Below are positions 2,467 through 23,772 of a DNA stretch of 64,000 nucleotides, one piece after another; position 1 is the first letter of the stretch, and each line of letters opens with the position of its first letter. The stretch comes from a phage. The notes under the pieces were generated by a model. The model did not search any database and had not been told where the DNA came from. It saw nothing but the letters and a program-made list of their open reading frames with translations. The position numbers were made by a program, and so were the translations under genes. Location: the sequence record OZ413489.1; one strand, 5' to 3'.

Positions 2467-4896
2467 ATGAGCATGTGGTCGTTCGACTTTGAGTCATCCG
2501 GTTTGCTGGAAGACCCAGATCTTTATTATCACTGCGGCCTGTTTAAAGAGCTGAATAAGAACCGTTTTATGCTGTTCCTTCCTCTAAATGACCGCACACA
2601 CTACTCCGAGGAGGATATAGAAAAGGCTAAGAACTTCATTCTGGCAAAGAAAACTCTTTATAAAGATTTTGAAGTTCGCATAGCAGATTTTTCAGAGTTG
2701 GAAGGTTGGCTTACAGGAAATTCTGACTGGTCACCAACAGCTTTGAACTGCCATAACTGCTACAGTTATGACTTTATGCTGATGGAAAGATTATCTGGTA
2801 TTCATTTTGATATGTTCCGTGATCCTAAATGTATGGGGACTATCAACGATCACCAGGTTAACCTGTTTGATACGTTGGCGATGAGCCGAATCTTGTGGCC
2901 TGATCGCCCTTTACCAAAAGGTTGTCCGGACTCTGTATTCAACCCGGTTACTAAGAAAATGCAGCCTGTTGGTCCTCACGGCCTTATGGCATGGGGCTAC
3001 GCCCTTGGTAACCAGAAAGTTCAAATTGATGACTGGCGCGATCTTCCGTTGTGGAAGTATGTGGATCGTGTATTCGAGGACGTTATCATCCAGGAGCTGC
3101 TCTGGAAAGAGCTGGTAGCGGAATCAAAAGGTGTATTCTACGGCAAATCTGACATGCAGAACTTTATGTACGATCCGGCCAAAGAGAAGCCGAAAGGGTT
3201 CAAGAAGATCACCTGGAAGAACGCATTACGTCGAGGCATGCTGCAGCACTTCCTGATGGAGCTGCAGGCCCGTCAGGGTGTATACTTCGACATAGATGGA
3301 GCTATTGCTTTACGTGACCGTTGCGATGCGTGGATGAAAGAAATCGCTGATCGTGTTGAACCACAACTACCTTTAAAAGAGCTGTCAATGTCTCAGCGGC
3401 CCAAGTTCCCTGAAAAGCCGTTTAACCAAGACGGGACAATCTCTAATAATGGTTGGAAATGGTTAAAAGATAAGCTTGGCTATCCTGTAGACATGAGTGC
3501 TTTAGAGTTCAAAGCCCTGCCTAAGCGAGCATTTACCTCTACAGGAGATGTCAGCAAGATGGGGATAAAATGGTGTGAAGAGATGGGCTGCAAAGACCCC
3601 GATAAGATGGCTGATTTCTTGAGAGGCTATATTAAGGGCACCTCCACACCACAACCCTTACCTAAAGAGCTGATGGATCAGGCAATAAGTGATCTGCAGC
3701 AGAAGCGAATGCCTGACTGCAAGATACCTATGAAAATCAGCAATCAGGACGACATCAAGCGATACCTAATCAGTGCTGGTTGGCTCCCAACAATGTGGAG
3801 AACTAAAGATGTAACTAAAGACAGCAAGAAGAAAGCTTTACCTGATGCAGATGTTGATGCACGAGTATATGCATATATGGACGAGCTTTTGGAGTCAGAG
3901 TATTGTGACCTAATTATCAACTTCTGGAACAAAACTGATGCTAAGTTCCAGACAACCGTGCACAAGTTCCGAAGCTTTCCTAACTCCGAAAGGATTAAAA
4001 AGGAAGTATTCGGGAAAATACGTAGAAAAGCCAGGGCACTTATTACTTCTCCGCAACTGAAAGATACGTTTGGACACCTATGCCCAAATCTTGAAAAATT
4101 GAACGGAGAGATGGCTAAAGATATCGTCTTGTGGTTATCATTGCGAAACCGCAGATCGGTCCTTGATCCAATCAAGGAGGATAAGGTTGATACTGGTCTT
4201 CTTAATCACCCACGTTTGAAGATTGACCATAAGCTTCCTGCTAAAAGCTCTGGATTAACAAACACTTCCAGACAGAAACACAGTATTTGTGCAAACATGC
4301 CTAAACCATCTCCTAAAGTAGTTATGGGTAAAGAGATGCGTAGTCTGTGGGGTGTTCCTCCAGGATACTTTGAGATCGGTATTGACGGGTCCAACTTAGA
4401 GCAGCTCATCGGGGCTTGGGGTGCCTTTGAGTTCGACAACGGCTTGTATTATGATGTTGTAAGTAACGGAGACGCACACCAAAACAATGCTGAGGCATAT
4501 ACAAAAGTGGCAGGCAGAGAGGTGTCCCGTAACGACGGTAAACCTATCACGTATGGGGTTATGTACGGGGCACAAAAAGATAAAGTTGCAGATATGCTGG
4601 ACATCTCCCCAGAGTTGGGACAAAGGGTAATCGATGCACTCTGGGATGCCAACCCAGGTCTTAAGGGGCGCAAAGAGGATCTGGAGAAATTCTGGGAAGC
4701 AACAGGTAAGAAGTTTATCTACTCTTTTGATGGTCATGCTATCTGGACCCGATCTAAACACTCTTTACTTAATGCATACCAACAAAATGGCGGTGCATCG
4801 TTGTGTGACTTAGTTGGAATACTCATGCACCACCAGATGGTGAAGCGTGGGTGGTACGATGAAGGTGTTCGTCGTATTATTTATTACCATAAATAA
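2467..4896 (+). CDS. DNA polymerase, family A (T7 / Pol I type)
   Basis: 809 aa; N-terminal exo motif FDFESSG; motif A-like IGIDGSNLEQL; motif B-like KPITYGVMYGAQ. Confidence 0.85.
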   Translation: MSMWSFDFESSGLLEDPDLYYHCGLFKELNKNRFMLFLPLNDRTHYSEEDIEKAKNFILAKKTLYKDFEVRIADFSELEGWLTGNSDWSPTALNCHNCYSYDFMLMERLSGIHFDMFRDPKCMGTINDHQVNLFDTLAMSRILWPDRPLPKGCPDSVFNPVTKKMQPVGPHGLMAWGYALGNQKVQIDDWRDLPLWKYVDRVFEDVIIQELLWKELVAESKGVFYGKSDMQNFMYDPAKEKPKGFKKITWKNALRRGMLQHFLMELQARQGVYFDIDGAIALRDRCDAWMKEIADRVEPQLPLKELSMSQRPKFPEKPFNQDGTISNNGWKWLKDKLGYPVDMSALEFKALPKRAFTSTGDVSKMGIKWCEEMGCKDPDKMADFLRGYIKGTSTPQPLPKELMDQAISDLQQKRMPDCKIPMKISNQDDIKRYLISAGWLPTMWRTKDVTKDSKKKALPDADVDARVYAYMDELLESEYCDLIINFWNKTDAKFQTTVHKFRSFPNSERIKKEVFGKIRRKARALITSPQLKDTFGHLCPNLEKLNGEMAKDIVLWLSLRNRRSVLDPIKEDKVDTGLLNHPRLKIDHKLPAKSSGLTNTSRQKHSICANMPKPSPKVVMGKEMRSLWGVPPGYFEIGIDGSNLEQLIGAWGAFEFDNGLYYDVVSNGDAHQNNAEAYTKVAGREVSRNDGKPITYGVMYGAQKDKVADMLDISPELGQRVIDALWDANPGLKGRKEDLEKFWEATGKKFIYSFDGHAIWTRSKHSLLNAYQQNGGASLCDLVGILMHHQMVKRGWYDEGVRRIIYYHK

Positions 4897-4920
4897 CATT
4901 GTGGCTTCATAGAGTAATCT

Positions 4921-5079
4921 ATGTCGAATAACCTCTTTAACTGCGGGAAGCCTAAACCTTATGGCAAGGTAATCCGCAACGAAGCGCTCAAAAGAGCGAA
5001 CGCTCAGAGGCCATTCCGAAAGGAAGTAGACCAGCAAGTGCGGTCGAAATGGGAGGATTCCTGTGGTTGCTTATCATAG
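4921..5079 (+). CDS. small hypothetical protein (52 aa)
   Basis: ATG ORF below the track size cutoff in the gap after the polymerase gene; weak RBS. Confidence 0.3.
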   Translation: MSNNLFNCGKPKPYGKVIRNEALKRANAQRPFRKEVDQQVRSKWEDSCGCLS

Positions 5080-5163
5080 GAATATGAGATGGTCCGATCC
5101 TACGTGAAAACGTATGGCTATGCACGTAATGGTGCGGGGTAGCTTAACGACCTACCTGAACTA

Positions 5164-14079: not shown

Positions 14080-14540
14080 GATTTCTAAAATGGATTTCCT
14101 CCTTTTGATATTTCACCGGGCCGGATATTTTAAAATTCTTAGAAAATCAGAAAATGGATCGAAAACTAAAATGGATTTTTCAGAGTAGGCGCGACAAGCT
14201 GAATAACTCATCCTATCGTTTGCACCATATTCCAGGCCACCATTATAGATTTCCCACACATGCTAACCTCCCTCTACTAGAACTTCCTCCACTTACCCTT
14301 GACCTTCTATGGTAACAATCTAACCGCTATCTTGAAGTTGCTGTGCAGCTTTCCAGGTACTCGATCTACTTTTCATTTCAGGGCTTGGATTTTCTGAAAA
14401 TTTTTCTCGATAAATTTCTCAGTACTCGATCTGTTTTTCGTTTTCTGAATCGGATTTTCTGGAAATCGTTCCGGCTCTCGACCTGAAATTTTTGGGGACG
14501 AAATCGATTTTTCGTTTTCAGAAATGGATTTTTAAAATTT
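14080..14540. repeat. iteron-like direct repeats (AAAATGGAT x4; about 35 bp TCGATCT...GGATTTTCTG unit x3)
   Basis: AAAATGGAT at about 14087, 14151, 14168, 14522; longer units at about 14358, 14422, 14501; AT-rich, no ORF. Confidence 0.6.
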
Positions 14541-14646
14541 CTATATGGGAATATTTTATGGGATACTGTTTTATAGGAAATTGTTACGGAGGGTAATTAG
14601 CGTGCTAATTAAATTTATTAAATGCGAGGAGTTCTCATTTAGAATT

Positions 14647-14838
14647 TTGAATGATAATCATTCTCGTTTGCAGAATAACGGGCAGGCCCGGTGATTGTCT
14701 CCCGGCCCCTACTGCCCCGGCTTGTTATTATAGTATCACACAGGACAAAGAAAGCAAGGATTTTTTGCATAAATTTTTAAATGATAATGATAACCGTTCT
14801 CATTTTATGCAGCGCCCATCCCCGGTGGTTGTCTCCCC
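14647..14838. repeat. two tandem units: Fur-box-like AT core + TTCTCRTTT..GCAG + GC-rich tail
   Basis: Unit 1 14647-14703, unit 2 14779-14838; cores match the Fur consensus at about 15-16 of 19 positions by hand alignment. Confidence 0.5.
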
Positions 14839-15060
14839 CGTCACCGGTGCCTGCCGTCCTTTCGATAGGTATATCGTGCCACCTGGCGGGGCCGCTGTCA
14901 ACACTTTTCAAAAAATTTTTCTAACCTGATGCGCTAACCGCTGCAACCTGGCGGGGTCAGCCTGGCAGGACCTAACTGACCGGGTAGGAGAGAATGAAGG
15001 CTTGTAAACCTGGTGGGCCTATGCTACAGGATAGGTAACAATTGAAGAGGAGGTACAAAA

Positions 15061-21210: not shown

Positions 21211-21561
21211 ATGAAAGTCAAACTATATTACCTTAATGAGCTTAACCCCCTTGCCCAGGTCCGCGCCCTAGCTAATACCTTGATTTGTGAGAAATCTGTA
21301 TATTGTGTTGAGCTTAACGCCATGCGTGAACGTCTCAAAGGTGGTTACTTTGACATCCATGCTGCAATCAACGGCCTGAATATGGAATTTATACGCTTAC
21401 GTAACAGCCGCCGGAATCTGGCAAGAATGGAACAAGATCCGGCCCACCTTCGTAAACTGGTTATTGAAAATCATCTGATGTTTAATGCCGAGGGGGATTA
21501 TTACCATTTTCACCGCAAACGCTGGTACCGTGGCGGCAATACAGGCAAGAATGCAAAATAA
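21211..21561 (+). CDS. hypothetical protein
   Basis: 116 aa ORF. Confidence 0.5.
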   Translation: MKVKLYYLNELNPLAQVRALANTLICEKSVYCVELNAMRERLKGGYFDIHAAINGLNMEFIRLRNSRRNLARMEQDPAHLRKLVIENHLMFNAEGDYYHFHRKRWYRGGNTGKNAK

Positions 21562-21599
21562 GGCCCCTAGCAGGGCCTGCAGCAATATAATCACATAAA

Positions 21600-21630
21600 G
21601 GCCATGCGGTTGCATGGCCTTTATTATTTT
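21600..21630 (+). terminator. rho-independent terminator
   Basis: GGCCATGC-GGTT-GCATGGCC followed by TTTATTATTTT. Confidence 0.7.
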
Positions 21631-21678
21631 GGCGTTACAACGGCATACGGGGCGCTTAAAAAATTTTTAAAGAAGTAC

Positions 21679-21707
21679 TTGCATCATTCCCGACAATATG
21701 GATAATA
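21679..21707 (+). promoter_or_regulatory. sigma70-type promoter (TTGCAT-17-ATAATA)
   Basis: Precedes the GC-rich island 21720-22140. Confidence 0.45.
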
Positions 21708-22100
21708 AGAGTTGTCGAGGGGGAGGCCCCCAATCGTTGACCAGATAGATAGGAGTTAAAATCATGGCTATTGTTACCGCTGGCTATCTTCAAAGATGCG
21801 GAAGCAAAACAACGCCGGATCTCAATACATGAGATCATCAACCTTAACGCTGGAGGCACACCATACCGCCCAGGACCTGGCCGTGAGATGGACAATACGC
21901 TAGCGATCCTGAAGATACGCCGTAAACGGTCCTCCCTTACTCTGGACTCATTACACACAATGCAGCCTCCGTTCCAGGTGACCGGGAAACGGATCGCCAG
22001 GTCCTGGACAAAGGCCAATGATCGGACCGTATAAATAAAAGTGTTTTGGTACTGATTTTGGGGTTGACTTGTTCGGCCCCTTTTGCTATTCTTATTAAAC

Positions 22101-22123
22101 GGGCGGCACTTGGGAACAGGGGG
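22101..22123 (-). repeat. third, inverted copy of the GC-rich tail GGCAGGCCCGGTGATTGTCTCCC
   Basis: 22 bp exact reverse-complement match to 14682-14703. Confidence 0.6.
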
Positions 22124-22168
22124 AGACAATCACCGGGCCTGCCTGTCATATAAGAACTATAAAAACCG

Positions 22169-22197
22169 TTGACATCTGCCATGGGGTGGGGTAACAT
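22169..22197 (+). promoter_or_regulatory. sigma70-type promoter (TTGACA-17-TAACAT)
   Basis: Upstream of the 22252 gene. Confidence 0.45.
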
Positions 22198-22251
22198 TTA
22201 TCTTGAAGGGGCAAAAGTGCCCACACAACAACCAAGAGAGAGGAAAACACT

Positions 22252-22524
22252 ATGTCAAACTGGATTAATCAAGAAGTCGAATCACGTTTTAATGCTATTT
22301 GGGATCTCATCGAAAAAGAAGACGGCACATCAAGCCCCTACCTCAACAATTTGGAATTCCATTTTGTGGAAGCGATGAACGCAGAACATGATCACGAAGG
22401 TGGCGCGGATGAGTTCGCTAAAGGTTATGGCTTTAACAATGCCAACGAAATGATCGAGGCGGTAGTACTCCAGGCTGAGGAAGATTATCAACTAAAAACG
22501 CTTGAATTCTGCCGCCGCAAGTAA
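22252..22524 (+). CDS. hypothetical protein
   Basis: 90 aa ORF with GAGAGAGGAAA RBS. Confidence 0.55.
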   Translation: MSNWINQEVESRFNAIWDLIEKEDGTSSPYLNNLEFHFVEAMNAEHDHEGGADEFAKGYGFNNANEMIEAVVLQAEEDYQLKTLEFCRRK

Positions 22525-22893: not shown

Positions 22894-23772
22894 TCTCCTC
22901 TTTTCCTACCACAAATGGCCCCGCCTGGCAAATGGAATAATCAACAAGCCAGCAATTAACCCCACTGTACAAACATACATATAAAATAACTATTGCATAA
23001 TTTTTCATTGTGTGGTAGCAGTGCCATTTTTACACGTTTTTCCTTCCAAAATTGCACGTAATGCAGCATTTGCACAAAATTTAACCTGATGCATATCTTC
23101 AATAGCTTGTCAACAACTAAAAATCTTTATAAGTCATACACTTACATAACTACAAAAACGTTTTCTACGTGAAAAATCGAGTATAACTATAGCCGCCAGA
23201 TCTCAGAATTTACGTACGCTCGCCATTCTATAGCCTGCTAAGCATTTATTCCAACCATAGAATAACGGAATAGTCAATACCTGCATAAAATAATTATTCG
23301 TGTAAACTGCATAACATAAATCGGCCCAGGTGTCAACATTTTTCGTAAACAGTCTGGAATTGTCACGTTAGGTTACCATAAGCAGAGAAATCTTTAGTCG
23401 TCTAATGTTTACTGTACATTACTATACTGACTGGAATCATTAGATGACTAAGAGAAAGATAAGAAATAATTAATAATGTAATTATTTTACCTGTAACAAT
23501 AAGGCAACTATGCAAACGAATGGCATGGCGCGACGGAGTCGCGACATAATATAAAAGCAGTAACCATCACCCCCGTGATAGTTTGTCTGCAAACTATTAA
23601 TCAGATCATAGTTGCCTTGTATTTAGTTAATCATGACATGACAAGCAAGGCAACTATAGATCTGCTAATAGTTGCCCTGCTTTTATATTATGTCATGCTA
23701 ATTATAATCAGTGCGATTATTGTCATGTATAATTATTGTCATGCAAACGAATGGCATGGCTGATTATCGGTG

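Follow-up and report, generated by a model that had tools for sequence, protein, structure and literature searches.

What occupies the GC-rich island at positions 21640-22140 of this phage sequence, an interval that lies between a terminator and a promoter and for which a first-pass annotation, made from the letters alone, had offered either a structured RNA or a foreign remnant? We examined the island in the context of the window, by which we mean the whole 64,000-nt stretch of record OZ413489.1 that was analysed. Based on homology, junction mapping and reading frames, we propose that the island is very probably a deletion scar, in which a conserved gene of the protein family PHROG 13681 was decapitated by a private 2.3 kb deletion within a variable early-gene region.

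The window belongs to an rV5-like coliphage (Vequintavirus). Around the island, 1.4 kb of sequence match 118 phage records, almost all of them rV5-like and including "Campylobacter phage" records of the same kind, and the surrounding 10 kb match 130 Vequintavirus-like records. This 10 kb stretch is 94-97% identical to the closest relatives, in which the same interval measures 12.4-13.3 kb. The neighbourhood is made up of small genes on the + strand, each run of which is flanked by sigma70-like promoters and intrinsic terminators. The length of the region is highly variable among real isolates, and 241Ecol014PP is entirely without the PHROG 13681 block. A scan of the window for tRNA and tmRNA genes found none, and the sole Rfam 15 family above the gathering threshold in the window is a group I catalytic intron at 4881-5116 (RF00028, 64.7 bits, E=4e-14).

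The left-hand part of the locus comprises the following features:

21595-21634, + strand: intrinsic terminator with a 13-bp perfect stem and a 4-nt loop, then TATTTTGG.
21679-21706, + strand: putative sigma70-type promoter TTGCAT-16 nt-GATAAT, read from the sequence, with an A/T-rich tract upstream.
21719-21731, + strand: small GC hairpin GGGGG-AGG-CCCCC, read from the sequence and presumed to have a role in the 5′ leader.
21752-21832, + strand: Shine-Dalgarno sequence AGGAG (21752-21756) and a 22-codon fusion ORF (ATG 21764, TGA 21830-21832).
21777-21784, + strand: deletion junction with one retained copy of the 8-nt direct repeat CCGCTGGC, located by two-sided base-by-base extension.
21771-22034, + strand: decapitated PHROG 13681 gene with codons 19-103 kept, homology beginning at 21777 and TTG 21771 being a mechanical start.

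The strong terminator reported at the left edge of the island is present, with its stem at 21595-21624 followed by a T-run, and serves the upstream gene at 21211-21561 (phrog_8549, E=1.3e-41). The promoter at 21679-21706 fell below the threshold of the scan tool, hence its putative status. Over 21640-21787 the window is 99-100% identical to many Vequintavirus records, in which this block lies 5′ of the PHROG 12610 gene, and in these relatives the same putative promoter would head an operon that starts with the PHROG 12610 gene and ends with the PHROG 13681 gene; it is presumably used in the present phage as well. The leader hairpin also occurs in 241Ecol014PP. The intact PHROG 12610 gene (94 aa; L007:3725-4009, L003:1566-1850), which matches its own profile with E=4.9e-63, begins with the same ATGGCTATTGTTACCGCTGG as the fusion ORF, and the latter consists of the first 7 codons of this gene followed by PHROG 13681 sequence read out of frame. 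Both weak ORFs of the first-pass annotation, a 22-codon ATG ORF at 21764-21832 and an 87-aa TTG ORF at 21771-22034, are therefore real, the former being the fusion and the latter the decapitated gene. The distance from AGGAG to ATG 21764 is an optimal 7-8 nt and that to TTG 21771 is 14 nt.

Alignment with four relatives revealed a mosaic junction in the window. Up to ~21784 the window resembles 241Ecol014PP and many other records, sharing with them the terminator, promoter, leader hairpin, AGGAG and ATGGCTATTGTTACCGCTGG, and from 21777 it matches the interior of Murica gp154 and RudolfGeigy bas52_0127 with 97-99% identity. The extension used rV5_ev168 (L007) and AlexBoehm (L008) as references, and the window proved to follow the left parent as far as 21784 and, from 21777 onward, the right one. 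Both references contain the two sides of the junction in the same order but ~2.3 kb apart, the window being shorter by 2316 bp relative to rV5_ev168 and by 2319 bp relative to AlexBoehm. The intervening stretch holds the rest of the PHROG 12610 gene and a series of complete small genes, seven in rV5_ev168 or eight in AlexBoehm. CCGCTGGC is found at both parental sites in AlexBoehm, and the right-hand copy of rV5_ev168 is CCACTGGC, with one mismatch to CCGCTGGC. The repeat is read as A|CC GCT GGC in the left gene and as CCG CTG GC in the right gene, so that the fusion is one base off frame and the right gene's frame is left with only the mechanical TTG at 21771. The ambiguous coding ascribed to the island is fully accounted for by this out-of-frame fusion.

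An insertion in the relatives, instead of a deletion here, was rejected. Many records, and other genera as well, have intact PHROG 12610 (94 aa) and PHROG 13681 (103 aa) genes. As the long form completes these two conserved ORFs, no direction but deletion makes sense. The deletion is known from this single sequence: none of 50,697 phage genomes contains a junction-spanning record, and the exact 38-nt junction sequence has no copy in IMG/VR or JGI metagenome contigs. The uniqueness of the junction in all collections searched, and its position at a short repeat, might suggest an artefact of mis-assembly, cloning or collapse of chimeric reads, with the real phage retaining the full 2.3 kb. We consider this scarcely credible, given that the collapse of a modern assembly would take a much longer repeat than 8 nt and that real isolates vary widely in the length of this region.

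We therefore prefer a genuine deletion, for which the following sequence of events can be envisaged. Ancestrally, transcription from one promoter (~21679) would have covered nine to ten small genes, the PHROG 12610 gene being the first and the PHROG 13681 gene the last, and would have ended at the terminator at 22060. Illegitimate recombination between the two CCGCTGGC copies, which lay within the first gene (codons 5-7) and the last (codons 18-20), would then have removed ~2.3 kb and with it eight to nine genes. The residue would be the promoter, the leader, the Shine-Dalgarno sequence and 7 codons, joined one base off frame to codons 19-103. Ribosomes starting at ATG 21764 would halt after 22 codons, leaving the other 85 codons without a proper start.

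Positions 21777-22034 correspond to the final 85 codons of a hypothetical gene that is conserved and encodes 103 aa, and the 87-aa translation matches phrog_13681 with E=2.8e-43 over residues 3-87 and profile positions 19-101 of 102, compared to positions 1-101 for a full-length relative. The translations had been called low-complexity, which is wrong for the sense frame, since it matches a conserved protein family. The remnant shares the reading frame of Murica gp154 and bas52_0127, is 97-98% identical to P0001, and differs from the intact RudolfGeigy copy by only ~4 substitutions, junction codons included; overall, the retained part is 97-100% identical at the amino-acid level to the members from E. 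coli phages. Being almost identical to intact copies, the remnant is still undecayed. Conserved protein homologues thus identify an ordinary gene at this place in the ancestor, the outcome that the first-pass annotation had named as contrary to its own reading, and the present copy departs from that ancestral gene in having lost the start and the first 18 codons.

Intact full-length PHROG 13681 genes were detected by tblastn in 55 of the 50,697 phage records. They encode 103-105 aa in Vequintavirus, Certrevirus and Justusliebigvirus, and the more distant homologues (64-77% amino-acid identity by tblastn) comprise Certrevirus CR3, CR8, CR9, PBES02, DU_PP_I, P7_Pc, KaOmega and F1M1E as well as Justusliebigvirus FKP3. 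All full-length copies are annotated CDSs, mostly with an ATGA overlap to the gene 5′ of them, and most Vequintavirus genomes are without the gene. Among 13 homologues aligned by codon, 36/32/66 of 101 columns are variable at the three codon positions, the third varying about twice as much as the first two, and Nei-Gojobori dN/dS between genera is 0.19-0.39 at dS 0.5-1.1; the family is under purifying selection at the protein level. The protein is a hypothetical protein of Vequintavirinae and Stephanstirmvirinae. Sequence searches with the full-length protein returned no Pfam domain and no PDB relative, and among 5.8 billion proteins only eight clusters match it, all of them unnamed. An AlphaFold2 model from a 7-sequence alignment is all-helical but unreliable (mean pLDDT 50.1, pTM 0.41).

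Across genera, no part of the family is better conserved than the 18 lost N-terminal residues (MIAITPTVLDWYRQ.IAPP), so that profile positions 1-18 and the family's conserved N-terminus are absent from the remnant. Nor does the remnant have a usable start: in relatives the ATG overlaps the upstream stop, whereas here the TTG lies 14 nt past AGGAG and ATG 21764 is off-frame. We infer that the remnant is not translated. As a counterpoint, its ORF is fully open over 85 codons, as if it were still used from TTG 21771 or ATG 21888, and a truncated PHROG 13681 protein might still be made from either of these codons or through a +1 frameshift. The intact frame over all 85 kept codons, their near-identity to functional copies and the in-frame TTG 3′ of AGGAG all speak for such a working remnant; a recent deletion would, however, explain the near-identity equally well, the TTG would face competition from a strong ATG at the optimal 7-8 nt, the missing 18 residues are the most conserved ones, and no frameshift signal is evident. 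Continued function in this form is thus unlikely. The remains of the gene are most likely a transcribed but non-functional remnant whose original function has presumably been lost.

The description of the interval as GC-rich holds: 21640-22140 has 49.1% GC, which is the 98.6th percentile of 500-nt windows, and the ORF at 21771-22034 reaches 52.7% GC (99.8th percentile) compared to 43.0% for the whole window. In the retained PHROG 13681 ORF, GC3 is 58% versus 43±5% in 31 long ORFs, and the 86 retained residues are encoded with 53.5% GC versus 46.7% expected under the window's own codon usage. The gene is a genuine compositional outlier, beyond what its amino-acid content explains. Homologues in Certrevirus have 54-57% GC and a GC3 of 61-65%, and the GC-richness belongs to the PHROG 13681 gene family. 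Both the GC outlier and the patchy presence would fit an accessory gene that has been exchanged with relatives of higher GC content, such as Certrevirus. Of the suggested foreign remnant, the remnant has been borne out as the residue of a 2.3 kb deletion, and the foreignness in part, by GC content and patchy distribution. Avoidance of CCWGG (Dcm/EcoRII) was considered as a marker of foreignness and discarded, as the window has 116 sites versus 78 expected and hence no avoidance.

The island had also been described as open in several frames on both strands. Across 21771-22034 this applies to the sense frame and one antisense frame but not to the other four frames, which have 3-6 stops each. The antisense frame corresponds to a 157-aa ORF at 21656-22129 that is open only in E. 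coli phages; it was rejected as a gene, having no PHROG match and 1-3 stops in nine of nine distant homologues.

A long-range inverted repeat of 11 bp had also been noted in the island. The repeat exists, with CCAGGACCTGG at 21870-21880 and CCAGGTCCTGG at 21997-22007, but its length was understated, as it is a perfect 12-nt repeat with 114 nt separating the arms:

21870-21881, + strand: inverted repeat arm 1, CCAGGACCTGGC, codons CCA GGA CCT GGC (Pro-Gly-Pro-Gly).
21996-22007, + strand: inverted repeat arm 2, GCCAGGTCCTGG, codons GCC AGG TCC TGG (Ala-Arg-Ser-Trp).

Such arms could close a functional ~140-nt structured RNA domain (21870-22007), acting as a non-coding RNA or as a regulatory structure of the mRNA. 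The stem is a perfect 12 bp, the motif CCAGGWCCTGG occurs twice in the window versus 0.03 expected, and synonymous-codon shuffles of the ORF produce a 12-nt inverted repeat in just 0.7% of trials. The minimum free energy of the bracketed RNA is -57.5 kcal/mol and its z-score -3.3, the latter value biased by the segment having been picked because of the repeat. Given the shuffles and the z-score, the PHROG 13681 gene would not trivially be expected to contain a 12-nt repeat. At the scale of the window, perfect inverted repeats of at least 12 nt with a 20-300 nt gap number four versus 1.27±1.17 in simulated windows, the other three forming a repeat cluster at 23501-23694; with ~1.3 expected per 64 kb, one such repeat in the window is not unusual.

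Comparison with other genera argues against a role for the stem. Arm 1 lies in an indel-prone loop, with a two-codon gap in five of nine distant homologues and changes in the remainder, and arm 2 is changed in all nine, where Ser is replaced by Ala (GCC or GCA) and the perfect complement is broken. In a 12-sequence alignment, one pair of the 12-bp helix has a double change and seven of the 12 pairs depart solely by broken pairs; the RNAalifold consensus is without this helix and has a covariation term of -0.01. An Rfam E-value scan of 21500-22300 gave chance-level matches only (E>5), and selection acts at the protein level. Some pairing is built in, as the codons for Pro (CCN) and those for Gly (GGN) complement each other. 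With no Rfam match, protein-like evolution and a 12-bp stem that is not kept in other genera, the structured RNA of the first-pass annotation is very unlikely, and the inverted repeat itself is most likely a coincidence that arises from Pro/Gly codons opposite GCC-AGG-TCC-TGG; an mRNA structure specific to this lineage is improbable.

Two blocks of the gene, CCGCTGGCTATCTTCAAA and GGATCGCCAGG (21777-21795 and 21991-22003; columns 52-72 and 269-281 of alignment A2), are invariant at every codon position in 12 homologues at dS ~1. RNAalifold pairs one with the other, and as they never vary the pairing carries no covariation information. The 8-nt repeat of the deletion sits in the first of these blocks.

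Downstream of the remnant, the island contains or adjoins three further features:

22060-22092, + strand: terminator hairpin (22060-22080), then TTTT, overlapped by a promoter whose -35 is contained in the stem.
22099-22146, + strand: conserved non-coding element of ~48 nt, CGGGCGGCACTTGGGAACAGGGGGAGACAATCACCGGGCCTGCCTG, with the core GGGAGACAATCACCGGGCCTGCC at 22121-22143.
22169-22197, + strand: early-type promoter TTGACA-17-TAACAT of the next gene, 22252-22524 (PHROG 7287).

Transcription from the putative promoter at ~21679 to this terminator would probably yield an orphan transcript, from a unit of ~370 nt. The promoter that overlaps the terminator consists of TTGACT at 22064, a 17-nt spacer and a TG-extended TATTCT ending at 22092, and this overlapping arrangement is conserved in Vequintavirus, Certrevirus, Justusliebigvirus and Phapecoctavirus. 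The promoter previously noted at 22169 is upheld with 10 of 12 positions, and matches the sigma70-like early promoters of the AAAA-N-TGTTGAC...TATAAT type described for Certrevirus; the same paper does not describe the element at 22099-22146 (PMC7344957).

This element is separate from the gene remnant. It contains the inverted copy of a GC-rich tail that had been noticed in the island: an exact 23-nt inverted copy of 14681-14703 does exist, but at 22121-22143, ~20 nt to the right of the 22101-22123 originally given. The core, also given as GGGAGACAAWCACCGG / GGGAGACAAYCACCGGG, has three copies in the window versus 0.12 expected, and the paralogues of the element lie on the - strand at ~14679-14720 and 14809-14857, the latter with an 18/19 copy at 14821-14839. 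The element always begins at the predicted start site of a TG-extended -10 promoter, and the paralogues at 14.7 kb are each located immediately 3′ of a -10-like hexamer. Together with its terminator/promoter context, the element is 84-89% identical among Vequintavirus, Certrevirus, Justusliebigvirus and Phapecoctavirus; further carriers of the 14.7 kb type are Henunavirus, Seunavirus, Mydovirus and phiTE, and conservation extends across Vequintavirinae and Stephanstirmvirinae. A specific pattern recovered it from IMG/VR only in 137-152 kb contigs of rV5-, CR3-, phiTE- and Hena1-like phages. Looser searches were uninformative, a loose gapped pattern giving 120 chance matches with no true one and a 16-mer mostly hitting an unrelated prophage gene.

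The evidence for an RNA structure in the element is weak. Gathering-threshold and E-value scans gave no Rfam match in the island or in the 14.3-15.05 kb region. Individual elements fold with a shared outer stem and inner hairpin; RNAalifold found no consensus structure for 20 instances and, for eight B-type instances, just an 8-pair outer stem with one compensatory pair. The mean z is -1.07 on the sense strand versus -0.46 on the antisense strand, and the 14.7 kb copies are oriented against the local gene direction (FV3 annotation). An undescribed cis-acting leader RNA, for instance in anti-termination or RNA stability, or some other RNA is a possible but doubtful reading. It is much more likely that the element is a functional conserved non-coding element of some kind, and in rV5-like phages it could also be an origin-priming transcript or a regulatory DNA site. 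A sigma54 promoter reading of GGCAC...TGC within the element was dismissed on inspection for its wrong spacing. BASEL annotations place a 29-aa TTG ORF across the element (L002:1807-1896, L008:6364-6453 and L020:403-492, equal to window 22083-22172), a CDS call that is probably spurious because the same element occurs elsewhere without any ORF.

Several repeats elsewhere in the window were observed alongside. Fur-box-like palindromes of the AAATGAGAATGATTATCATT type (TGAGAAT-N-ATTCTCA) directly follow the 14.7 kb elements at 14647-14665 and 14783-14801 and match the E. coli Fur-box consensus at 15 of 19 positions, better than any other site in the window. They also lie around positions 440-520 of L262-L267, and occur two to four times in phiTE and GAP31. 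Matches at 13 of 19 positions are frequent by chance in an AT-rich genome such as this, with 39 observed versus 24 expected. Host iron regulation or a phage operator is possible for these palindromes. Nearby, 14400-14650 is part of a non-coding region of ~300-700 bp, depending on whether a 92-aa ORF at 14651-14929 is real, and contains iteron-like repeats GAAAACGAAAAAnnGAT and a long AT-rich palindrome at 14488-14525, with AAAAAATTTTTTCGCG conserved in relatives; it could serve as a replication origin or in some other form of control. The cluster at 23501-23760 is a repeat-rich non-coding region of low GC content (32-37%), in which three copies of AAGGCAACTAT in alternating orientation (23501, 23607 and 23646) create three perfect 12-nt inverted repeats, and the 20-nt direct repeat ATGCAAACGAATGGCATGGC is present at 23511 and 23741.

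For annotation, 21764-22034 is best entered as a PHROG 13681 pseudogene or deletion remnant, and as neither a new gene nor an RNA. The locus provides a clean natural example of gene loss in the accessory early region of rV5-like phages via an 8-nt repeat. The eight to nine lost small genes are evidently dispensable, and their loss marks the genes from PHROG 12610 to PHROG 13681 as non-essential for the propagation of this phage, which is useful for phage engineering. Beyond this example the deletion is an ordinary finding, and the element at 22099-22146 with its paralogues alone might repay more work.

Deletions between short direct repeats in non-essential regions are classical in phages, as exemplified by the early-region deletion mutants of T7 and by those of T4. 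The present junction resembles them in keeping a single 8-nt copy, in the two-copy parental arrangement ~2.3 kb apart in relatives, and in affecting a block of small, dispensable early genes; unlike those selected laboratory mutants, it occurs in a natural genome sequence, where either replication slippage or recombination may have generated it. Hyperplastic or accessory early-gene regions are likewise known from large lytic phages, and share with this region their runs of tiny genes, units bounded by promoters and terminators, and a presence that varies among close relatives. Here, however, the breakpoint lies inside two ORFs and not at module boundaries, and genes were destroyed rather than modules swapped. 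Compared to the members of PHROG 13681 (Murica gp154, bas52_0127, CR3_154), the remnant retains the frame and the terminator after the gene, but has lost codons 1-18, its own start and the translational coupling, and carries a foreign 5′ end that is off-frame. For the neighbouring element, the closest parallels are cis-acting leader RNAs that adjoin promoters, HK022 put and the promoter-early stem-loops of T4 among them. Like these, it is a conserved, repeated unit of ~48 nt at a predicted transcription start in which an outer stem is possible. It differs from them in having no sequence similarity and no Rfam match, in its weak thermodynamic and covariation support, and in paralogues at 14.7 kb that run against the gene direction, and a site acting at the DNA level fits at least as well.
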